A stretch of DNA of 11,009 nt from a bacterium (lineage in GTDB: Bacteria > Hydrothermota > Tepidihabitantia > Tepidihabitantales > Tepidihabitantaceae), in NCBI GenBank assembly GCA_046485285.1, contig JAWOHE010000090.1:1-11009 (forward strand). The letters run 5' to 3'. Both the position numbers and the translations under genes were made by a program. Each line of letters opens with the position of its first letter. The stretch's first letter is position 1. The notes beneath the pieces are model-generated. The model saw only the letters and a program-made list of their open reading frames with translations, made no database searches and was not told the DNA's origin. Below are positions 1 through 9,999 of this stretch, piece after piece.

Positions 1-206
1 CTGGCGTTGCACCCGATGATGTACCCTCGGTCGCGGGTCTGCTCAACCGTGTAGCAGTACGAACTGCCCCACGGCCAGACCCAAAGGCGCTCGAACGTTA
101 CCTGGGCCAGACTGCACGTGGCCAGCGAGACGACCAGAACGGCTACCGTCCGGACTCCAGGTATCAGGGCGCGGGCTCCACGCCCGTGCGCTGGTTGACA
201 CTCCAC
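1..206 (-). CDS. Secreted repeat/beta-propeller-like protein, N-terminal part (runs off the window edge)
   Basis: Not in the ORF track; manual translation from GTG at 206 gives MECQPAHGRGARALIPGVRTVAVLVVSLATCSLA-QVTFERLWVWPWGSSYCYTVEQTRDRGYIIGCNA. It has a signal-peptide-like hydrophobic stretch ending S-L-A, and a motif resembling 'TFERxY...SVQQTxDGGYII' of secreted repeat proteins. An in-frame TAA just upstream limits the start. Confidence 0.7.
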   Translation of the reverse strand, partial: MECQPAHGRGARALIPGVRTVAVLVVSLATCSLAQVTFERLWVWPWGSSYCYTVEQTRDRGYIIGCNA

Positions 207-242
207 GCAGTCATTTTATAGCATTGCTGCCCTCGGTGTCAA
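195..242. promoter_or_regulatory. Overlapping opposite-facing sigma70-type promoters
   Basis: - strand: TTGACA (242-237) with TATAAA (220-215) or TAAAAT (218-213). + strand: TTGACA (195-200) with TAGCAT (219-224). Confidence 0.55.
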
Positions 243-462
243 GCAGGGTGTCCCACCGCGGGAGAACGGTGACAAAGATGTTGACACCACCGCGTTCCTG
301 CAGTCTCGGATCAGGCAATGGGAATTCCCCGCCATTGGCCCGAGGCCTCCGGCCCGGCTAACCGAATGGCCCCGGCCGGCCGGACCGCCTCACGACCACC
401 GCCTGACGCAGAATTCTGGATGTGGAGTTTGAGTAACTACTAACGGTTCATAATCGCCAGGT

Positions 463-486
463 ATCCGGCTAAACACTTAGCTGGAT
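463..486. other. Inverted repeat/hairpin ATCCGGCTAA-ACAC-TTAGCTGGAT
   Basis: 10-bp arms with 9/10 Watson-Crick pairs plus one G-T, and a 4-nt loop. It lies just upstream of the 12-bp array. Confidence 0.6.
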
Positions 487-519
487 TGCTCTTAGGATGT
501 ATCCGGATTTCCCCCCTCC

Positions 520-735
520 CCTATCCCCCCGGTGACCCCCCGGGTTATCGGACCGGTAACCCGGAGCGTCACCCGGCCGGTCACTCTCCGGGTCATCCGG
601 CGTATCATCCGGCGCATCATCCGGCGTATCATCCGGCCGGCAATCGAGCCATTCACCGGCCCGGCAAACCGCCCGCTCACCCGCCCGGTCACCGGGTCGG
701 TCACTGCCCGAGTCATCGGCCGGGTCAACCGGGGA
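520..735 (+). repeat. Degenerate tandem array, 18 x 12 bp, consensus approx. GTCAYCCGSCSG
   Basis: Units read in phase without indels: cctatccccccg, gtgaccccccgg, gttatcggaccg, gtaacccggagc, gtcacccggccg, gtcactctccgg, gtcatccggcgt, atcatccggcgc, atcatccggcgt, atcatccggccg, gcaatcgagcca, ttcaccggcccg, gcaaaccgcccg, ctcacccgcccg, gtcaccgggtcg, gtcactgcccga, gtcatcggccgg, gtcaaccgggga. Position 4 is A in every unit and position 6 is always a pyrimidine. Confidence 0.92.
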
Positions 736-978
736 ATGCGGCTCCGGGTGCCGGAAAACGACGGTCAGGCCTGCCGCGCAACTCTCCGCAAAGAATCCGG
801 TTGGCACGGTACAGCCGCGTCCGGTCAGGTCGAAGATGAAGTTCAGGCGGAAGATCGGGGCTCCGAGAGGATATAACTATATGAGGGACCCCGGCTGAAC
901 CAGCCCGCTTGTGGTGAGCCGGAGCCCTGGAGTCCGATAATGTCCGCAGAATGCGGGAAGACCCGCAAAGGAGACGCT

Positions 979-1389
979 ATGTCCGCATATCCTGTCCCAC
1001 CGCCCGACGGCGCGACCCGCTGGGCCAAGTACCGCCTGCGCTTCGAGCGCCGGGCCGACGGCAGACTGCCGGAAGGCAGTTCCGAGAAGATGGCCGGGCT
1101 GATGACACAGCCGGCCCTGACTGCCCGGGTCCAGGCCTCGATGGACGGCCTGCACGCGGTCGAGGCCGACACCCGGGCGGTGCTCTGCACCACGGGAGTG
1201 CCGCCGATGCTGTTTGTCTTCTACCTCGACTACGCCCGGGAGCTCTGGAAGCTGACCAACCGGGTCAGCGGCGACTCGGCGGTCGGCGAAGCCGCGGCCC
1301 TGGCCGCCAAGTGGGTCGCCCGGAGCCTGTCAATCGAAATCCTGCGCCGGGTTGCCTACGAAGTGTTCAGTATCCGGCTGGCGGACTGA
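979..1389 (+). CDS. Hypothetical protein, putative SIRV2/rudivirus-type (Adnaviria) major capsid protein homolog
   Basis: ATG at 979 follows AAGGAG (968-973), giving 136 aa (the ORF track starts at 940). The motifs RWAKY...AVLCTTGV...YLDYARELWKLTNRVSGDSAVGEAAALAAKW parallel recalled SIRV2 MCP motifs RYAKW...AVLTQYGI...YQGFGLKVARALNRIGSGPALVNMINGLKGYY. The CDS itself is well supported; the homology is by eye. Confidence 0.7.
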   Translation: MSAYPVPPPDGATRWAKYRLRFERRADGRLPEGSSEKMAGLMTQPALTARVQASMDGLHAVEADTRAVLCTTGVPPMLFVFYLDYARELWKLTNRVSGDSAVGEAAALAAKWVARSLSIEILRRVAYEVFSIRLAD

Positions 1390-1417
1390 CGGCCGGGGCG
1401 CAGCTCATCCGGGCAGA

Positions 1418-1444
1418 GGGTCGAGGGGTCAAGGGGTCGAGGGG
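1418..1444 (+). repeat. 8-bp tandem repeat (GGGTCRAG) x3.4, G-quadruplex-capable
   Basis: gggtcgag gggtcaag gggtcgag ggg gives four G-tracts separated by 4-nt loops. Confidence 0.8.
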
Positions 1445-1453
1445 CAAACTGCG

Positions 1454-1474
1454 AAGGTCGTGATTCAGCGGTAG
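1454..1474 (+). repeat. 21-bp direct repeat, left copy (AAGGTCGTGATTCAGCGGTAG)
   Basis: Identical to 2030-2050. Confidence 0.95.
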
Positions 1475-1501
1475 GCCGGCAGTCTGACCGGAACGAAACG
1501 G

Positions 1502-1744
1502 TTACAGCCGGTCCAGTAGCTTGGTCTTGGATACGCCGGTCCAGATGCTGACCCGGCTCAGGATGTCGTTCAGCGTACCCTTGGCCAGGGTCTTGTGTGC
1601 CGGGACCGTGATGCGGTGGACCCCGGCCTCGGAAACCCTCTGAAGCCGGACGTGGCTGCCGCGCTGCCGGACCACCGAGTAGCCGAGACTCTGCAGCAGC
1701 TTGACAAGCGAGTCGCCGCTAGTTGGCGGCAGACGGGGCGGCAC
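1502..1744 (-). CDS. hicA: Type II toxin-antitoxin HicA family toxin (mRNA interferase)
   Basis: 80 aa with the pattern LVKLLQSLGY-VVRQRGSHVRL...ITVPAH..LAKGTL..IL, including the catalytic GSH motif. Confidence 0.93.
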   Translation of the reverse strand: MPPRLPPTSGDSLVKLLQSLGYSVVRQRGSHVRLQRVSEAGVHRITVPAHKTLAKGTLNDILSRVSIWTGVSKTKLLDRL

Positions 1745-1943
1745 TCGTGACCTCGGTTTCGGTCAGGAACAGGATGGACAGCGGCTTGCCCGCCTTCAGT
1801 TCATCTTCGTAGTGACAGGCAACGGCTTCGCGGACTTCAACCAGTAGACCATCCAGCGTGTCGCTGCACGTGAAGATGTCCCCACCAACCCCACGGGCGC
1901 ACCATTGCTCGCCATCGGAGTAGACTTCTACCTTGACCACCAT
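1719..1943 (-). CDS. hicB: HicB-like antitoxin, short form without an obvious DNA-binding domain
   Basis: 74 aa and acidic, with the WCARG...IFTCSDTLDGL..EVREAV.CHY pattern of the HicB N-terminal domain. It overlaps the hicA start. Confidence 0.85.
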   Translation of the reverse strand: MVVKVEVYSDGEQWCARGVGGDIFTCSDTLDGLLVEVREAVACHYEDELKAGKPLSILFLTETEVTSAAPSAAN

Positions 1944-1948
1944 ATCTC

Positions 1949-1976
1949 ATTATCGCCGCCGGGCCCGACCGGTCAA
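1949..1976 (-). promoter_or_regulatory. Putative hicBA promoter (leaderless)
   Basis: TTGACC (1976-1971), 16-nt spacer, GATAAT (1954-1949). The ATG follows 5 nt later with no Shine-Dalgarno sequence. Confidence 0.6.
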
Positions 1977-2029
1977 GTCGGTGTTGCACTCCAGGGCAGG
2001 GAGCGGCCCTTCACCGCGGTCGTAGTGCC

Positions 2030-2050
2030 AAGGTCGTGATTCAGCGGTAG
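2030..2050 (+). repeat. 21-bp direct repeat, right copy
   Basis: Identical to 1454-1474; the two copies are 576 bp apart. Confidence 0.95.
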
Positions 2051-2079
2051 CCGCGGCCGGCGCGGTTCAACGCCGGGCG

Positions 2080-2784
2080 TCAGGCGGCCGCGACTACGAC
2101 CACGAAGCTCGCGCCCGGGACGTAGCCATCACGCGGCTCCTCGGCCCGGTCACATTCCCCGGGTCCGAGAAACAGCGTCGAAACCGTCCGCTCGATGCGA
2201 TACCCGGCCTGCTCGAACTCCGCGACCACCTCCGGGTGAGTGGCGAACCACGCCCTGCTGAACAACGGGTGGCCTTCCCGTCCTTTCGCGACGTAGTCTC
2301 TCCCCCACGCGCCGTCCCGGTCGAGAAACGCGTTGACAACCCGGCCGCCGGGCCTGAGTATCCGGCGGCACTCGCGAAGGACCGCCTGCCGGTCACTGAG
2401 AAACGCCCAGGTCGTGAGCAGGAAGACGGTACCGAAGCTCCCTGCCTTGTACGCCGTCTCCTCGCCCTCGCCCCAGAGCACGTCGATGCCCCGGGACCGG
2501 GCGAGCTTCAGCAGTCCCTCCGACGGGTCAACGCCCTGCGGGATGCCGAGCGCCTGCGCGAACCGGCCGGTGCCGACCCCGATTTCCAGCCAGGGCTTCT
2601 CCAGCCCGGGCAGGAGCGGCCGGAGCGCCGCGAGCTCGGTCTCGAACGCGAACCGGCCCTTGCCGTCGTACCAGCCGTCGTACTTCGCGGCCAGCGCGTC
2701 GAAAGGCGACCCCGGGGACATGACCGGCTTTCGGTCCTCCGAAACCCGGATCGTGTCCCCGGCTCTCCGGTCACGCCCGCTCAT
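2080..2784 (-). CDS. Class I SAM-dependent methyltransferase
   Basis: FD..A.KYD.WY, motif I LEIGVGTGRFA, GVDPS, ECRRILRPGG. The start is uncertain (ATG 2784 overlapping the upstream stop, or ATG 2721). Confidence 0.9.
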   Translation of the reverse strand: MSGRDRRAGDTIRVSEDRKPVMSPGSPFDALAAKYDGWYDGKGRFAFETELAALRPLLPGLEKPWLEIGVGTGRFAQALGIPQGVDPSEGLLKLARSRGIDVLWGEGEETAYKAGSFGTVFLLTTWAFLSDRQAVLRECRRILRPGGRVVNAFLDRDGAWGRDYVAKGREGHPLFSRAWFATHPEVVAEFEQAGYRIERTVSTLFLGPGECDRAEEPRDGYVPGASFVVVVAAA

Positions 2785-4930: not shown

Positions 4931-5790
4931 TCCGCCACCTTTCGCCACGCGGCCTCGATCGCCGACCGCGCCGGCGAAGACTCGCCTTCAACCACGGTCC
5001 GGCCCGCGACGACCGCGCGCGTTACCGCCTCGTCGTAGGGCACCCTGCCGACGACCTCGACGCCATTCTCCCGGCACCAGTCCTCGAGCGCCCGGGCGTT
5101 GCCCGGGTTGATGTCGAACCGGTTGACGAGGCACCCGGCCCGGATCCCGAACCGCCCCGCGACCTCGGCCACCCGCTTGAGGTCGTGGATGCCCGACAGG
5201 CTGGGTTCGGCAACGGCCAGCACCATCTCCGCGCCGGTTATCGCGGCGATGACCGGGCAGCCGATGCCCGGCGGGCCGTCGGCAATCACGTACCGGGCGC
5301 CGCGGTCCGCGGCAATCGCGGCCGCCCGCTTCCGGACCGCGGTCACGAGCTTGCCCGAGTTCTCCTCCGCCGGGCCGAGCCGGGCGTGGACCATCATCCC
5401 GCACCGCACCCGCGACACGAACCACTCGCCGTTGACCGCCGGGGTCATCCGGATTGCGCCCGCCGGGCAGGCGCGGGCACAGAACCCGCAACCCTCGCAC
5501 GCGACCGGGTCGATGTCGAAGGACTCCGTGACCGCGTCGAACCGACAGACCTCGCGGCATCGGCCGCAATCGGTGCAGGGTCCGGGGTCGCGCACCGCGA
5601 TACTGCCGCCGCTGAACTCGTGCCGCTCGAGCACCTCGGGCTGGAACAAAAGGTGCAGGTCGGCCGCGTCGACGTCGCAATCGGCCAGCACGCAATCGCC
5701 CGCCAGCACCGCGAACGACGCCGACACGACGGTCTTGCCGGTCCCGCCCTTGCCGCTGACGACCGTGAGCCGGCGCGCCGGCGCGGTCAT
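4909..5790 (-). CDS. MinD-superfamily P-loop ATPase with inserted 2x[4Fe-4S] ferredoxin domain (COG1149-type), copy 2
   Basis: SGKGGTGKT, DCDVDAADLH, CTDCGRCREVC, CEGCGFCARACP, ENSGKLV, DGPPGIGCPV. ATG 5790 forms an ATGA overlap. Confidence 0.93.
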   Translation of the reverse strand: MTAPARRLTVVSGKGGTGKTVVSASFAVLAGDCVLADCDVDAADLHLLFQPEVLERHEFSGGSIAVRDPGPCTDCGRCREVCRFDAVTESFDIDPVACEGCGFCARACPAGAIRMTPAVNGEWFVSRVRCGMMVHARLGPAEENSGKLVTAVRKRAAAIAADRGARYVIADGPPGIGCPVIAAITGAEMVLAVAEPSLSGIHDLKRVAEVAGRFGIRAGCLVNRFDINPGNARALEDWCRENGVEVVGRVPYDEAVTRAVVAGRTVVEGESSPARSAIEAAWRKVAECLAETK

Positions 5791-6617
5791 GAGGCGAGCT
5801 CCCGGACGCGCTGCCAGAGCTCGCCGAACGCGGCCCGGTACCCGGGCAGGGCCTCGACCAGCGACATGCCCCGGGAGTAGGCCTCGGCGATGCGCCGGTC
5901 GTGCGGAATCCGCATCAGGATCGGGATGCCCTCGGCGGAACACCACTGCTCGGTCTTGTCGTCGCCGATGTCGGCCCGGTTCAGGACCACGCCGAACCGG
6001 ATGTCCAGCCGGCGCAGGGTCTCGACCGCAAGCGTGAGGTCGTGCAGGCCGAAGGGCGTCGGCTCGGTCACGAGCAGGCAGAAGTCGCTGCCGAGCACCG
6101 ACTGCACCACCGGGCACGACGTGCCCGGTGGTGCATCGAGGATTGCGCCCCCGTCGGTGCTGATCTCACGCTTGACGGCGCGGATGACCGGGACCGCCAT
6201 CGGCTCGCCGATGTTCAGCCGGCCCTGGACGAAACCGGTACTGCCGCCGGCGCCGGTCTCGACGACGCCGATCGGGATTTCCTTCTCGCTGATTGCCTTT
6301 TCCGGGCAGACCCACGCGCACAGACCGCAGGAATGGCACAACTCGGGGAAGACCAGCACCCGGCCGGGCAGGACCGCCAGCGCGTGGTAGGCGCAGGCCC
6401 GCGAGCACTCGTGGCAGAGCGTGCACTTCCCGGGGTCGACCTCGGGCACCAGCTTGTTCACCACTGCCCGCCCGGTTATCGCCGGCTTCAGGAAGATGTG
6501 GCCGTTGGGCTCCTCGACGTCGCAGTCGAGATACTGGCTGCCGGTGACCAGCGCCAGGCTGACCGCGACCGTCGTCTTGCCGGTTCCGCCCTTGCCGCTG
6601 GCGACCGCGACGACCAC
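5787..6617 (-). CDS. MinD-superfamily P-loop ATPase with inserted ferredoxin domain (COG1149-type), copy 1
   Basis: SGKGGTGKTT, DCDVEEPNGHIF, CTLCHECSRAC, CHSCGLCAWVCP, DAPPGTSCPV, VTEPTPFGLHDL. Confidence 0.93.
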   Translation of the reverse strand: MVVAVASGKGGTGKTTVAVSLALVTGSQYLDCDVEEPNGHIFLKPAITGRAVVNKLVPEVDPGKCTLCHECSRACAYHALAVLPGRVLVFPELCHSCGLCAWVCPEKAISEKEIPIGVVETGAGGSTGFVQGRLNIGEPMAVPVIRAVKREISTDGGAILDAPPGTSCPVVQSVLGSDFCLLVTEPTPFGLHDLTLAVETLRRLDIRFGVVLNRADIGDDKTEQWCSAEGIPILMRIPHDRRIAEAYSRGMSLVEALPGYRAAFGELWQRVRELAS

Positions 6618-7083: not shown

Positions 7084-7449
7084 TCAGCAAGAGTGCTGAT
7101 GAGTACCGTCACCTCTTGAATTATGGTCGCAGGTTGAACTGCCCGCGGTCAGGTTGCCTGCCGCGTACTGCTCCAGGACCGCCGCAACTGGCCCTGATAT
7201 CCCCATGCACATCTCGATGTTCTGCTCGGCAAAGAGCGCCTGGGCGCGCGGCCCCGCCCCGCCGCAGATTATCACCTTCGCGCCCTTCTCGGCCAGGAAC
7301 CTGGGCAGGAAGCCCGGCTCGTGCCCGGGGTTTGGAACCAAGTCAGTCTTCACCACCCTGCCGTCCTCGATCTCGGCCAGTGTGTACTCGGAACAGCGGC
7401 CGAAGTGGGCCGATACCATTCCGTTGTCGGTCGCAACCGCAACTTTCAC
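7084..7449 (-). CDS. NifB/NifX (dinitrogenase FeMo-co biosynthesis) family protein
   Basis: KVAVAT...VSAHFGRC, PNPGH, IICGGAGPRA, and a His-containing tail. Confidence 0.9.
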   Translation of the reverse strand: MKVAVATDNGMVSAHFGRCSEYTLAEIEDGRVVKTDLVPNPGHEPGFLPRFLAEKGAKVIICGGAGPRAQALFAEQNIEMCMGISGPVAAVLEQYAAGNLTAGSSTCDHNSRGDGTHQHSC

Positions 7450-8264
7450 TTTGCCTCCGATTCGATGACTCGCTCGACCACTTCGAGAAGGACCTTGCTC
7501 GCCGGCGAATCCGGGTGGGCGCTGACGAGCGGTAGACCCTCGTCGCCCGACCCGACCATCGCCGGGTCAATCGGCACCTTGCCCAGCAGCGGCACAAGCA
7601 TCTCGCGCGCCATCGCGCCGCCGCCACCGGACTTGAACAGCTCGATCTCCCTGCCGCAGTGCGGGCATGTGAGCCCGCTCATGTTCTCGACCACACCGAG
7701 CACCTTGAGCTTCAGCATCTCGGCGAACTTCACCGCCCGCCGGGTGTCCATCAGCGCGACCTCCTGCGGCGTGGTCACGACCAGCGCCGCGGTTGCCGGG
7801 ATGAGCTGGGCGACGGTCAGCGGCTCGTCGCCGGTGCCGGGCGGCGAGTCGATTACCAGCCAGTCGAGGTCGCCCCAGTCGACGTCGCCGAGGAACTGCA
7901 TTATCACCCGCATCTTCATCGGCCCGCGCCAGACCACCGGCAGGTCCTTCCCCTCAAGCAGATAGGCCATCGAGACCAGCTTGATGCCGTGGGCCGCGTC
8001 GACCGGCCTGATCTTCTCGCCCGGGGTCATCCCGAGCGACTCGCCCTCGGCGCCCAGCATCTTCGCGACGTTCGGGCCGTGGATGTCGACGTCGAGCATC
8101 CCGACCCGGCGACCCTTGAGCGCGAGCCCGACCGCGACGTTGACCGCGACCGTCGATTTGCCTACCCCGCCCTTGCCGCTGAACACCAGCAGGCGGTTGC
8201 GGATTCGGCCGAGCGTGTCGTCGATCTTCGCCTGGTCCTTCGGGTCAATCCCGGGCGCGGACAT
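7446..8264 (-). CDS. mrp: Mrp/ApbC/NBP35 Fe-S cluster carrier ATPase
   Basis: SGKGGVGKST, DVDIHGPN, VVWRGPMK, WGDLDWLVIDSPPGTGDE, VTTPQ, ENMS..CPHC. Start at 8264 or 8267. Confidence 0.95.
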   Translation of the reverse strand: MSAPGIDPKDQAKIDDTLGRIRNRLLVFSGKGGVGKSTVAVNVAVGLALKGRRVGMLDVDIHGPNVAKMLGAEGESLGMTPGEKIRPVDAAHGIKLVSMAYLLEGKDLPVVWRGPMKMRVIMQFLGDVDWGDLDWLVIDSPPGTGDEPLTVAQLIPATAALVVTTPQEVALMDTRRAVKFAEMLKLKVLGVVENMSGLTCPHCGREIELFKSGGGGAMAREMLVPLLGKVPIDPAMVGSGDEGLPLVSAHPDSPASKVLLEVVERVIESEAK

Positions 8265-8638
8265 CACCGCCCTCCCATCCCGTGGTGCGCGGGCCCTGTC
8301 GGCCCGTCCGCGCTGCGGAGTTCGCCACGGTTCAGCGCCGCGACCGCCTCGGCCACCGTCCCGGCCGCGCCCGTGTACACCGGGACGACGGCCGCGTGCA
8401 GCGTCGCGAACGCCTTCGGACCGCAGTTGCCGGTCACGACCGCGCCAACGCCGCGGTCGGCCAGCATCTGCGCGACCTGGACCCCGACGCCGCTGCCCGA
8501 CTCGGCCGCGGTGTTGGGAACTGCCTCGCTCGCCATCGTCTCCGTGTCAATGAACTGGAAGTAAGCGCACCGGCCGAACCGCTCGTCGACGGCCGCGTCG
8601 AGACCCGGGCCGACGGCACTAACGGCTACCTTCATCAT
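8264..8638 (-). CDS. NifB/NifX family protein, orange-protein (ORP)-like
   Basis: KVAVSA.G..LDA.VDERFGRC.YF, G.GVQVAQ, VTGNCGPKAF..L, ending HHGMGG. Confidence 0.9.
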   Translation of the reverse strand: MMKVAVSAVGPGLDAAVDERFGRCAYFQFIDTETMASEAVPNTAAESGSGVGVQVAQMLADRGVGAVVTGNCGPKAFATLHAAVVPVYTGAAGTVAEAVAALNRGELRSADGPTGPAHHGMGGR

Positions 8639-9660: not shown

Positions 9661-9999
9661 ATGCCTCGTGGAGACAGGACCGGACCGATGGGACTCGGGC
9701 CGATGAGCGGCCGGGGTCTCGGCCACTGCGCCGGCTTCGGCCAGCCCGGCTTCGTGAGCGGCGGCTGGGGTGGCGGAATGGGACGCGGCCGCGGGATGGG
9801 CTGGGGTCGCGGGATGGGCTGGGGTCGCGCTGCCTGGGGCATCACGGCCGTGCCTCCGACTGCAGCGCCGGGCTACTGGCCACGCCAGTTCCCGACCCAG
9901 TCCGAAGCCCGTAAGGATCTCGAGACTTACCGCGACCAGCTCCGCCGTGAACTGGAGGGCGTCGAGCAGTCCCTGACCGAGGACAAACCAGGTAACTGA
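9661..9999 (+). CDS. DUF5320 domain protein
   Basis: AAGGAG RBS. MPRGDRTGPMGLGPMSGRGLGHCAG, Gly/Arg-rich GRGMGW repeats, and a C-terminal coiled coil. Confidence 0.9.
   Translation: MPRGDRTGPMGLGPMSGRGLGHCAGFGQPGFVSGGWGGGMGRGRGMGWGRGMGWGRAAWGITAVPPTAAPGYWPRQFPTQSEARKDLETYRDQLRRELEGVEQSLTEDKPGN

Follow-up and report, generated by a model that had tools for sequence, protein, structure and literature searches.

Organisation of the locus

The window, that is, the whole stretch of 11,009 nucleotides that was analysed, carries near its start a gene for a capsid-like protein preceded by an array of 12-bp units. The following features were distinguished:

508–528, + strand: conserved C-rich leader TTTCCCCCCTCCCCTATCCCC, which opens the array; its second half is unit 1
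520–735, no strand assigned: array of 18 × 12 bp, consensus GTCAyCCGGCCG
736–741, + strand: conserved array-end motif RTGCGG (here ATGCGG)
773–799, + strand: spacer segment GCCGCGCAACTCTCCGCAAAGAATCCG, kept in four array-plus-gene copies of this genome (C24, C13, C6 and C7)
871–906, + strand: ATATAACTATATGAGGGACC with a short hairpin, between the array and the gene; promoter- or 5′-UTR-like
944–973, + strand: two small hairpins, CCGCA-GAA-TGCGG and GCGGG-AAGA-CCCGC, then the Shine–Dalgarno sequence AAGGAG, as read from the sequence
979–1389, + strand: gene for a 136-aa homologue of the SIRV2-type major capsid protein (MCP), with a basic N-terminal arm and a C-terminal four-helix bundle

The gene at 979–1389 is a real open reading frame, with a GC3 of 0.85 and AAGGAG located 6 nt before the ATG. 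Its neighbours in the window are HicAB, DUF1847, Fe-S/NifX-like and nitroreductase genes; HicA/HicB follow it directly and are encoded on the other strand.

The leader pattern TTTMCCCCCTCCCCYAYCCCC, with at most one mismatch, has 37 matches in this genome, about 23–26 in genome G004 and 3 in G002, and no matches in the 38 other genomes searched. In 14 of 16 loci the leader and RTGCGG are separated by a multiple of 12, ranging from 60 to 264 bp, with a spacing of 228 in six loci spanning four unit families. In the alignment of copies C24, C13, C6 and C7, a 1-nt indel lies directly before 773–799, so that this part of the spacer has no common reading frame. The segment 871–906, which we read as a possible promoter-like element, has a near-identical counterpart, ATATAACTAAGTGAGGGACC, in front of a family gene of a different genus (L165, genome G059) and also in C6 and C7. 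Among sequencing runs, no RNA run was found to contain the sequence, and the DNA runs contained at most 12% of its words. The hairpin and Shine–Dalgarno region at 944–973 is conserved in C13, C6 and C7, with a similar form in C98.

Structure and phase of the array

The initial annotation had described 18 contiguous 12-bp units with an invariant A and a pyrimidine, and this was confirmed: in the register starting at 520, A occupies unit position 4 in 18/18 units and C or T occupies position 6 in 18/18. The self-identity of the array is 0.62 at lag 12 and likewise 0.62 at lag 24, the remaining lags from 3 to 23 giving 0.18–0.34. In 2000 dinucleotide-preserving shuffles the identity at lag 12 was 0.297 ± 0.032 with a maximum of 0.41, which corresponds to z = 10.3 for the native array.

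A set of 17 related arrays (6 in this genome and 11 in G004) gave the profile G-T-c-A-y-C / s-g-s-C-s-g, in agreement with the annotated AT-richer first half and GC-rich second half of the unit. From leader to RTGCGG the array length is exactly 216 bp in 17/17 of them; their divergence reaches ~34%, yet no indels were found, and the indel-free character claimed for the window array holds. Because they are paralogous copies from this genome and G004, these window-type arrays represent few independent events. The lack of any 1–11-bp indel over up to 34% divergence points to a constraint on phase.

Tandem Repeats Finder reported only a weak array (553–704, period 12, 66% matches, score 43), so the earlier description of the phase as kept more strongly than the sequence is a fair one. 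Since this program barely detects the window array and misses degenerate ones, a lag-identity scan was chosen in its place for array detection.

At the level of DNA structure, a G-quadruplex was considered, as runs of G5 recur every 12 nt in the GTTACT and ACCGTA arrays, but it was rejected as a general explanation because the window-type and g10 arrays have no G runs. GC blocks such as CCGGCCGG or CCCCGGGG, located between T-N-A steps, may be A-philic.

The capsid-like protein and its family

The AlphaFold2 (AF2) model of the 979–1389 product has a pLDDT of 76; residues 45–130 are confident and the N-terminal 30 residues have low confidence. The predicted helices (11–22, 34–42, 45–72, 76–95, 99–113 and 119–130) form an N-terminal arm followed by a C-terminal four-helix bundle. 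Comparison of the model using VIA-align gave Z values of 13.4 (3f2e), 12.5 (6wq0), 12.3 (3fbz) and 11.9 (3fbl) to rudivirus and lipothrixvirus MCPs, with an rmsd of 1.3 over 77 residues for 3f2e and of 2.3 over 105 residues for the full-length SSRV1 MCP (Z 12.5). The top six rows are all MCPs of archaeal filamentous viruses, unrelated chains reaching Z ≤ 8, and the top six Foldseek matches are the same set.

Taken alone, the window protein has no match to PF12193 at E ≤ 1 and no Pfam match, and phmmer found nothing among the PDB sequences; a profile search was needed for this reason. The family profile A2 matched the PDB sequences 6wq0 (3.2e-8), 3j9x (7.7e-8), 5w7g_B (1.3e-5) and 3fbz (2.2e-4), the E-values for the SSRV1 and SIRV2 MCPs being 3e-8 and 8e-8. 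The alignment to these two proteins covers residues 4–113, including the N-terminal RYAKWQAKF arm. Among the 80 aligned family members, 43 match PF12193 (Sulf_coat_C) at E ≤ 0.01, with a best value of 1.4e-6, and 3 match PF21660 (MCP_C); member L071:1453–1860 exceeds the PF12193 cut-off of 25.2 bits with a score of 26.4. The bacterial family shares homology with the SIRV2-type MCP in both sequence and fold, and the label "capsid-like" given to the gene at first sight was appropriate. The membership of the window protein itself rests on the predicted fold and the family-level profiles, not on its own Pfam match.

Members of the family occur in 65 of the 66 genomes of the order, with 1–53 matches in each. 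A word-based protein search, which returned 10 close relatives only, badly understates its size, and no ESM Atlas match reached 0.9. Many family genes follow a sigma-70-like gene, and genes with sigma-70 r2/r4 domains are frequent neighbours. No virus genes appeared in the flanks inspected around family loci.

Linkage of arrays to the family across the order

The co-occurrence of arrays with homologues of the capsid-like gene, a check proposed along with the initial annotation, was assessed in 120 loci centred on family members, comprising 163 kb of upstream and 177 kb of downstream sequence. At lag 12, 23 regions were found in 19 of the 120 loci, all of them upstream, with none downstream and none overlapping the gene. 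Lags 8–11, 13 and 15–18 gave no regions anywhere in these loci, and lags 7 and 14 gave a few, mostly downstream. The arrays lie 70–810 bp upstream of the gene and consist of 12–38 units; in the other 101 sampled loci, among them L185, L086, L129 and L096 of the array clades, no array was detectable at the threshold used.

Arrays were found upstream of family genes in at least three genera (g1, g10 and g14), and their unit sequences are unrelated. The arrays of g10, g14 and g15 have neither leader nor unit sequence in common with g1. Often only one to three positions per unit are conserved across an array; the phase is nonetheless held over 12–38 units. The expected association was thus found, at period 12 and upstream only. 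No conserved partner gene beyond the array was found in the other genera, where the flanking genes share nothing, and the only constant partner of the arrays across genera is the capsid-like gene.

Placing the 17 array-linked genes on a tree of 109 family members takes 7 label changes. With labels shuffled within genera, 15.7 changes were required on average and at least 12, none of 1000 shuffles reaching 7; the array-linked genes form their own clades. In this genome, all five family genes for which the N-terminus and upstream sequence are available have an array of the same orientation upstream, in two unit classes, whereas the chance of an array per 1-kb stretch is ~0.03.

Dispersed arrays in genus g1

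The genome under study (2.34 Mb) contains 54 arrays, which behave like a dispersed repeat family. Their length changes by whole units (60–264 bp); some copies have decayed, one (C65) is a head-to-head palindrome, and some arrays are interrupted by IS256-like insertions. The placement of an array beside the capsid-like gene, as first noted for the window, recurs in 19 of the 120 loci; in this genus most arrays adjoin XRE-type HTH genes and not family genes. The recurrent layout in this genome is an XRE gene (HTH_31), ~100 nt containing TTGACC-N17-TAACAT, the leader and the array; by our reading, TTGACC-N17-TAACAT may be a promoter-like site. Many of the HTH genes are pseudogenes. A correspondence between the HTH variant and the unit family of the array was considered and rejected: the HTH N-termini hardly differ between arrays whose units belong to different families, and the majority of the copies carry frameshifts.

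Proposed function of the array

The MCP dimer of SIRV2 covers 12 bp of A-form DNA. The initial annotation had given this ratio for the SIRV2-type proteins, and it is stated as well for the related virus PFV2, whose asymmetric unit consists of an MCP dimer and 12 bp of A-DNA (PMC7189273). The agreement between the array period and the coat-protein dimer footprint suggests a built-in loading site. We assign a probability of roughly 0.45 to the reading that the array serves in cis to load or position the capsid-like protein, which would coat DNA.

The function of such an array would reside in its strict 12-bp phase and not in its sequence, and the array would act in cis as a site that nucleates or positions a filament. 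The adjacent protein, probably together with its paralogues acting in trans, would assemble on this site as dimers held in register, ~18 of them on the window array and 12–38 elsewhere, forming a short nucleoprotein filament beside the gene's own promoter-like element. Because the filament would adjoin this element, autoregulation or local silencing would be the most economical role, in the manner of the ParR/parC and TubR/tubC arrays, which repress their operons; a role similar to that of a packaging signal is also conceivable. We infer that the protein binds DNA, that it binds the array, that it does so in the 12-bp register and that the outcome is regulatory. The proposal of a loading system in the initial annotation stands in part: the MCP homology, the footprint, the linkage and the lack of coding selection (see below) argue for it, and the presence of arrays in only 19 of 120 loci, and in this genome mostly beside XRE-type HTH genes, argues against it. 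Viral MCPs of the SIRV2 class are regarded as sequence-independent DNA coaters, and for this reason a sequence-phased site is not predicted from the homologues.

Alternative explanations

As 12 nt equal four codons, a coding or RNA-level role is still conceivable. The array might encode a small tetrapeptide-repeat protein (a hydrophobic residue, Thr/Ser/Asn and two free residues) acting as a partner of the capsid-like protein: the period is a multiple of three, the window array leaves three or four frames open, VTRP/VIRR can be read in the frame 532–876 and VTGR on the opposite strand at 492–728, a similar L-[T/S/N] pattern is readable in L105 and L106, and unit positions 1, 4, 7 and 10 are the most conserved, which is what second codon positions would show in two of the frames. 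However, when six frames were inspected in 10, then 37 and then 17 arrays and pN/pS was computed per frame, no frame qualified as a coding repeat. Over the 17 arrays pN/pS was 0.89 (+f1) and 1.01 (−f2) in the candidate frames, 0.55 (+f0) and 1.90 (−f0), with no frame below 0.55 and +f0 closed by TAG in C33; codon-level selection, which the initial annotation had asked about as evidence of an ordinary coding repeat, was not seen. In none of the frames do the arrays compared share a start codon or ribosome-binding site; they have no 3-, 6- or 9-nt indels, and they contain the rare codons GTT, ACT and GTA in a genome with a GC3 of about 0.9. GC3 in the GTTACT and ACCGTA arrays is 0.42–0.6 versus 0.85–0.95 in genes, the value of about 0.8 in window-type arrays being uninformative alone. 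The invariant base of L122 falls on the third codon position in the sole same-strand open frame, none of the six frames is free of stops in arrays L087, L106 and L140, four array ORFs scanned against Pfam and NCBIfam gave nothing meaningful, and the peptide pattern arises automatically from the T-N-A motif in the DNA. Judged by these properties of its sequence, the array is non-coding in character, and we hold the repeat protein to be decidedly improbable. It appears less probable still, and indeed very unlikely, that the array is transcribed into a structured non-coding RNA or a long 5′ leader, such as a sponge that offers a protein repeated sites. The GTNAC/CCSGG-type units are dyad-symmetric and could form serial hairpins, and the C-rich leader could pair with the G-rich end, but the arrays in other genera have no dyad symmetry, the promoter-like element lies downstream and not upstream of the array, and a search of window positions 1–2100 against Rfam at E ≤ 1 returned only one chance-level match inside the gene.

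The behaviour of the arrays in g1 is also what would be expected of selfish BOX/MITE-type modular intergenic repeats, devoid of host function and piling up in long non-coding upstream regions. Conserved end modules, a variable unit number and many copies (37 leader matches and 54 arrays in 2.34 Mb, 23 counted in G004, none in two congeners) coincide here with changes by whole units, decayed and palindromic copies and IS256-like insertions. This combination occurs in genus g1 only, and descent from a single sequence family does not extend to the other genera, which have no common leader or unit. The same period, position and gene clade combined with unrelated sequence are therefore unlike one mobile family; in addition, degenerate arrays hold their phase with no 1–11-bp indel, and no arrays occur downstream of genes or elsewhere in the 340 kb of flanks. 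Repeats of this kind are, in our estimate, an improbable explanation. It is unlikely, too, but deserves somewhat more weight, that the array is a cis-regulatory or architectural element read by another factor (XRE-type HTH or sigma-related) or through intrinsic DNA structure, with the capsid-like gene as the regulated target. The conserved unit of XRE gene, promoter-like site, leader and array in this genome, the frequent sigma-70 r2/r4 neighbours of family members and the promoter-like element downstream of the arrays are consistent with such a factor. Against it, the capsid-like gene is the sole partner that stays constant across genera, the HTH N-termini show no sign of a specificity matching the unit families, the majority of the HTH copies are broken, and such a factor would leave unexplained why every genus has a period of exactly 12.

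Comparison with known systems

If the array serves as a loading site for the capsid-like protein, its closest counterpart would be the nucleocapsid of Adnaviria (SIRV2, SSRV1, AFV1 and PFV2). The protein is homologous to the MCPs of these viruses in sequence and fold, including the N-terminal arm, and the array period equals the published 12-bp asymmetric unit (PMC7189273). Unlike in Adnaviria, the gene lies in the bacterial chromosome among housekeeping genes, with no other virus genes seen. To our knowledge, viruses of Adnaviria do not use a sequence-phased site. More tentatively, the modules may be a cellular counterpart, ancestral or domesticated, of the Adnaviria nucleocapsid, in which a capsid homologue would polymerise on a sequence-phased chromosomal "origin of assembly" to give an A-form-like coated rod of 150–450 bp.

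The locus also resembles ParR/parC of plasmid R1 and TubR/tubC of type III systems in having a short direct-repeat array upstream of the gene of a small candidate DNA-binding protein, beside a promoter. The tubC repeats are direct, are always found upstream of tubR and repress the operon when bound (PMC6009700). Unlike the ribbon–helix–helix or winged-helix proteins of these systems, the protein here is an MCP-type four-helix bundle, and the module has no partition NTPase (ParM, TubZ or ParA); the ParA-like matches at 5787–6617 and 7446–8267 are of the NUBPL/Fe-S type and lie 4.4 kb away. The array units are much less alike, in many cases conserving a single base in each 12 bp, and the locus is chromosomal and multicopy, unlike the centromeres of plasmids and prophages.

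In the origin of assembly of tobacco mosaic virus RNA, the periodicity corresponds to the footprint of one coat-protein unit, and nucleation takes place in register. By analogy, the array may likewise match a nucleic-acid periodicity to a coat-protein footprint; the viral origin differs in being RNA, in having 3 nt for each subunit and in consisting of one hairpin site in the virus genome. BOX-type intergenic repeats have the structure boxA-(boxB)n-boxC with a boxB unit of about 45 bp. Like them, the g1 arrays have conserved modules at the 5′ and 3′ ends that enclose a variable number of tandem units, and they are dispersed in tens of copies. They differ from BOX in the 12-bp unit, in unit families that vary while phase and length stay, and in the recurrence of the same architecture in other genera with unrelated sequence, tied to one gene clade.

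Significance

According to a 2024 review (PMC10848233), the MCP of Adnaviria is unique and the realm is unconnected to bacterial viruses. A search of the main texts of open papers found no report of bacterial or cellular homologues of this protein. A multicopy bacterial family homologous over the full length would offer a concrete, testable cellular counterpart for the origin of the capsid.

The arrays predict that the coating of A-form DNA by one dimer per 12 bp is applied to chromosomal DNA, with phase rather than sequence as the guide. Should binding fail, they would remain an unusual class of strictly phased, clade-linked repeats needing another explanation. If the proposed function is true, the array would be the first known case of a dsDNA signal that carries the footprint of a coat protein in its periodicity, and the modules would represent a new mode of local nucleoprotein building in bacteria and a natural substrate for studies of A-form filament nucleation. 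The family would then give a capsid fold that has been regarded as confined to archaeal viruses its first branch outside viruses, in bacteria, and may mark a host-side origin of the capsid or a relic of unknown bacterial filamentous dsDNA elements.

Organization of the 12-bp Array

The features of the window considered here are listed below.

508–528: leader, a C-rich segment opening the array
520–735: array of 12-bp units
736–741: array-end motif RTGCGG
871–906: ATATAACTA..TGAGGGACC element and hairpin
979–1389 (+): capsid-like gene
1405–1476: G-rich dispersed repeat, about 72 nt, just 3′ of the capsid-like gene, containing GGGTCGAG ×3.4
1502–1744 (−): HicA toxin (PF07927, E 1e-14)
1719–1943 (−): small upstream ORF overlapping HicA, HicB-like (weak match, E 0.1)
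2713–2763: dispersed repeat, about 50 nt
9763–9829: 18-bp tandem repeat, 3.7 copies, within the DUF5320 gene 9661–9999

Read in register from position 520, the array consists of 18 contiguous units, and all 18 have A at position 4 and a pyrimidine at position 6. Lags 12 and 24 both give a self-identity of 0.62, all other lags from 3 to 23 one of 0.18–0.34; against a lag-12 null of 0.297 ± 0.032 (maximum 0.41 in 2000 dinucleotide-preserving shuffles), the lag-12 value corresponds to z = 10.3. Tandem Repeats Finder detects the array weakly, at 553–704 (66% matches, score 43). Given strong lag-12 identity with so weak a tandem repeat, phase carries more of the signal than sequence does, as the initial annotation had proposed together with the unit count and the two fixed positions, all of which were reproduced. 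Its claim of no indels also holds for the 17 window-type arrays (6 in this genome, 11 in congener G004), each 216 bp long and indel-free.

Four open frames run through the window array, an automatic consequence of the unit being stop-free. Across the 17 window-type arrays, pN/pS was 0.89 in frame +f1 (unit read as VTRP), 1.01 in −f2 (VTGR), 0.55 in +f0, which a TAG closes in contig C33, and 1.90 in −f0; no start codon is conserved across arrays in any frame. Read as coding sequence, the GTTACT and ACCGTA arrays would contain the codons GTT, ACT and GTA and have a GC3 of 0.42–0.6, vs 0.85–0.95 in the genes of the genome. A 1-nt indel just 3′ of the array sets the copies on C24 (the window) and C13 apart from those on C6 and C7, while the DNA on either side is conserved. 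Because of the pN/pS values, the lack of a conserved start, the codon usage and this indel, we conclude that the arrays are non-coding; the codon-level selection that would speak against a loading site was not detected.

Capsid-like Gene and Its Family

The 136-aa product of the gene, searched alone, has no Pfam, NCBIfam or PDB sequence match, and a word-based protein search with it returned only 10 relatives. Its AlphaFold model (pLDDT 76; residues 45–130 confident) retrieved archaeal filamentous-virus capsid proteins as the top six Foldseek matches (SIRV2 3j9x, AFV1 3fbz, SSRV1 6wq0 and others), with weak E-values. A stronger comparison, an all-against-all structural search with the model, gave Z-scores of 13.4 for 3f2e (1.3 Å over 77 residues), 12.5 for 6wq0 (2.3 Å over 105 residues), 12.3 for 3fbz, 11.9 for 3fbl, 9.3 for 5w7g and 8.2 for 6d5f, with unrelated chains at 8.0 or less. 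A family member of another genus scores 26.4 bits against PF12193 (Sulfolobus virus coat protein C-terminal; cut-off 25.2), which is matched by 43 of 80 aligned members (E ≤ 0.01), and a second coat model, PF21660, is matched by 3. The family profile matches the capsid sequences of SSRV1 (E 3.2e-8) and SIRV2 (E 7.7e-8) over nearly full length, N-terminal arm included. At the level of sequence, this settles the homology of the family to the archaeal filamentous-virus major capsid protein (MCP) and bears out the earlier designation "capsid-like".

The family is present in 65 of the 66 genomes of the order (1–53 matches per genome, about 630 in total) and in 1644 representative clusters of a global protein library (E ≤ 1e-3); its genomic context is chromosomal. 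Its neighbours in the window are HicA/HicB, DUF1847, Fe-S/NifX-like and nitroreductase genes. A HicA and HicB-like pair also lies behind the orthologous array-plus-gene copy on G004:C112, and a HicA is found near the C13 copy. Elsewhere, the family gene is often 3′ of a sigma-70 r2/r4 gene and sometimes forms a tandem paralogue pair. Adjacent pairs of distant paralogues, each pair split between different deep clades of the family tree, occur at loci L070–L072, where a sigma-70 region-4 protein gene immediately precedes them, and at L097, L100, L112, L138 and L178. They recall the two-MCP heterodimers of lipothrixviruses.

In a 2024 review the adnavirian capsid protein is called unique, and its realm unconnected to bacterial viruses (PMC10848233). 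The capsid-like protein is a new bacterial branch of this known capsid family. No description of bacterial or cellular homologues of SIRV2 or Adnaviria MCP, or of a bacterial PF12193 family, was found in the literature searched; Pfam may already hold such members.

Co-occurrence of Arrays with Family Genes

Family members formed the centres of 120 sampled loci (40, the window included, plus 80), which supplied 163 kb of upstream and 177 kb of downstream sequence. These were scanned with a fixed rule: 120-bp window, lag identity at least 0.5 and at least 0.15 above other lags.

Regions found in the lag scan
Lag 12: 23 upstream (19 loci), 0 downstream, 0 overlapping
Lags 8–11, 13, 15–18: 0 upstream, downstream or in the gene
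Lag 7: 4 upstream, 9 downstream, 3 overlapping
Lag 14: 2 upstream, 4 downstream, 1 overlapping
Lag 6: 2 upstream, 3 downstream

The expectation that homologues carry upstream 12-bp arrays was thus borne out in position, exclusively upstream, but in 19/120 loci only. A slightly different lag rule gave 18 array loci among the same 120; the nineteenth is, we think, L105 (genus g15), where an array of about 20 CTGA-phased units can be made out by eye upstream of the family gene. Arrays of the array-linked loci lie 71–811 bp upstream of the gene and comprise 12–38 units. Unit sequences are unrelated among g1 (the genus of this genome), g10 and g14, often with just one to three conserved positions per unit; for instance, L122 has T at position 9 in 29/33 units, L147 has G there in 25/28, and L087 has C at position 10 in 27/29.

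A maximum-likelihood tree was built from 109 proteins (110 gene matches passing length, start and stop filters, minus one duplicate), with 17 array-linked genes labelled; the short gene of L099 and L105 were left unlabelled. The labels require 7 changes on it, whereas within-genus shuffles averaged 15.7 and never went below 12 (0/1000 reached 7). Twelve of the 13 g10 array genes and the g14 one fall within one clade, separate from about 45 g10 genes that have no array.

In this genome, the family genes with the N-terminus kept and upstream sequence available, five in number, are all preceded by an array in their own orientation, with window-type units on C24, C13, C6 and C7 and GTTACT-type units on C98; a sixth family gene (C96) has an inverted array. 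A random 1-kb stretch of the genome touches an array with a chance of about 0.03. As C24, C13, C6 and C7 are paralogous copies of one composite, the five cases represent two or three independent events.

Short 7-bp tandem arrays were also observed at L075, L081, L083 and other g10 loci, as inverted pairs round GC-rich hairpins (for example, GTTACGG ×5 ... TGTCAGC ×8), mostly downstream of capsid-like genes.

Array Family within the Genus

The source genome (2.34 Mb, 102 contigs, 88% complete) contains 37 leader matches at ≤1 mismatch. At the same tolerance, congener G002 has 3, 23 were counted in G004 (26 places listed), and none was found in the two other congeners or in 36 searched genomes of other genera. 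Behind each leader come 12-bp units belonging to one of four families, then the RTGCGG end.

Unit families
GTCAyCCGGCCG (window type)
GTTACTCCGGGG
ACCGTAGGGGGT
GCCGCTCCCGGG

The leader-to-RTGCGG distance is a multiple of 12 in 14/16 loci and exactly 228 bp in six, which span four unit families. Independently of the leader, 54 lag-12 regions were found, making up 0.65% of the genome. In most copies an XRE-type gene (HTH_31, E 3e-8) lies left of the leader on the opposite strand, and the repeated unit includes its first ~250 nt (N-terminal coding part) and promoter region. The gene is apparently intact only in C4 and C19, and the window copy lacks it.

Several other elements accompany the arrays. 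A putative IS256-like element (end GTTGCGTGCCATAATGTCTGC) lies in or right beside 12-bp arrays in five or more places (C94, C7 at about 26100, C95, C96, C98), where many contigs end. On C65 (3394–3470), two leaders stand head-to-head 56 bp apart and make up a nearly perfect palindrome of 76 nt, flanked on both sides by XRE-type genes; recombination between two arrays probably produced it. Arrays of GCCGCT type, up to 528 bp long, begin with a second entry module, GAGCTTTGACGGCAGGGGGGGATATCCCCGGG, have no C-rich leader and end in GGGGATGCGGGGGGGGATAGGGG (C11, C40, C43, C48, C56, C88, C89). On C44, an ORF reading like an IS200/RAYT-type tyrosine transposase lies beside a truncated array, about 320–853 nt from the leader on the opposite strand. 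Genes convergent with many arrays (right flank of C55, C86, C101, C35) end 60–150 nt from the array end, and their C-termini read like T9SS sorting tails.

As for the other window repeats, copies of 1405–1476 are many in G002 and G004 (85–92%) and few in G001 and G003. The 2713–2763 repeat has dozens of 84–97% copies in all four congeners, the leader-less two included. The repeat in the DUF5320 gene is an ordinary coding repeat of the GWGRGM type.

Possible Function of the Array

In SIRV2, each MCP dimer covers 12 bp. The asymmetric unit of PFV2 is described as a capsid-protein heterodimer with 12 bp of A-form DNA, with similar coverage in SIRV2 and AFV1 (PMC7189273). Strict phase, near-free sequence, clade linkage and the same 12-bp footprint make a positioning or nucleation track for the clade's capsid-like protein the simplest reading, which we hold tentatively (probability about 0.45). 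Units would have been kept long enough to diverge beyond recognition while their phase was held, as on a track for a DNA-coating protein. The recurrent core of the units is T-N-A, TCA or TGAC, and its flexible pyrimidine–purine steps could plausibly form a deformability code, as in nucleosome positioning. The pairing of a capsid-like protein with a footprint-phased DNA array was not found described in the literature searched.

Against a loading site stand the 101 of 120 family loci without an array at the scan threshold, the absence of a family gene beside most arrays of this genome, and the viral capsid proteins of this class, which are regarded as coating DNA irrespective of its sequence. 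The g1 arrays, moreover, behave as a dispersed repeat family, which would suit a selfish modular repeat, itself a quite improbable explanation. A binding site for another factor is unlikely: no common flanking genes were found beyond the arrays in other genera, which makes a third partner less likely and also leaves the function without context. That the array encodes a pattern-only repeat peptide is less probable again, the pN/pS, start-codon and codon-usage evidence all being contrary; a structured RNA is very improbable.

For the track reading, autoregulation would be the economical role: between array and gene, in the window as in another genus, lies the conserved element (871–906 in the window) that is the gene's likely promoter, with the array shortly before it. 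A filament formed on the array would then regulate its own capsid-like gene. The same role is described for tubC/TubR, where a bound upstream site mediates autoregulation (PMC6009700), and the array and its capsid-like protein may act likewise.
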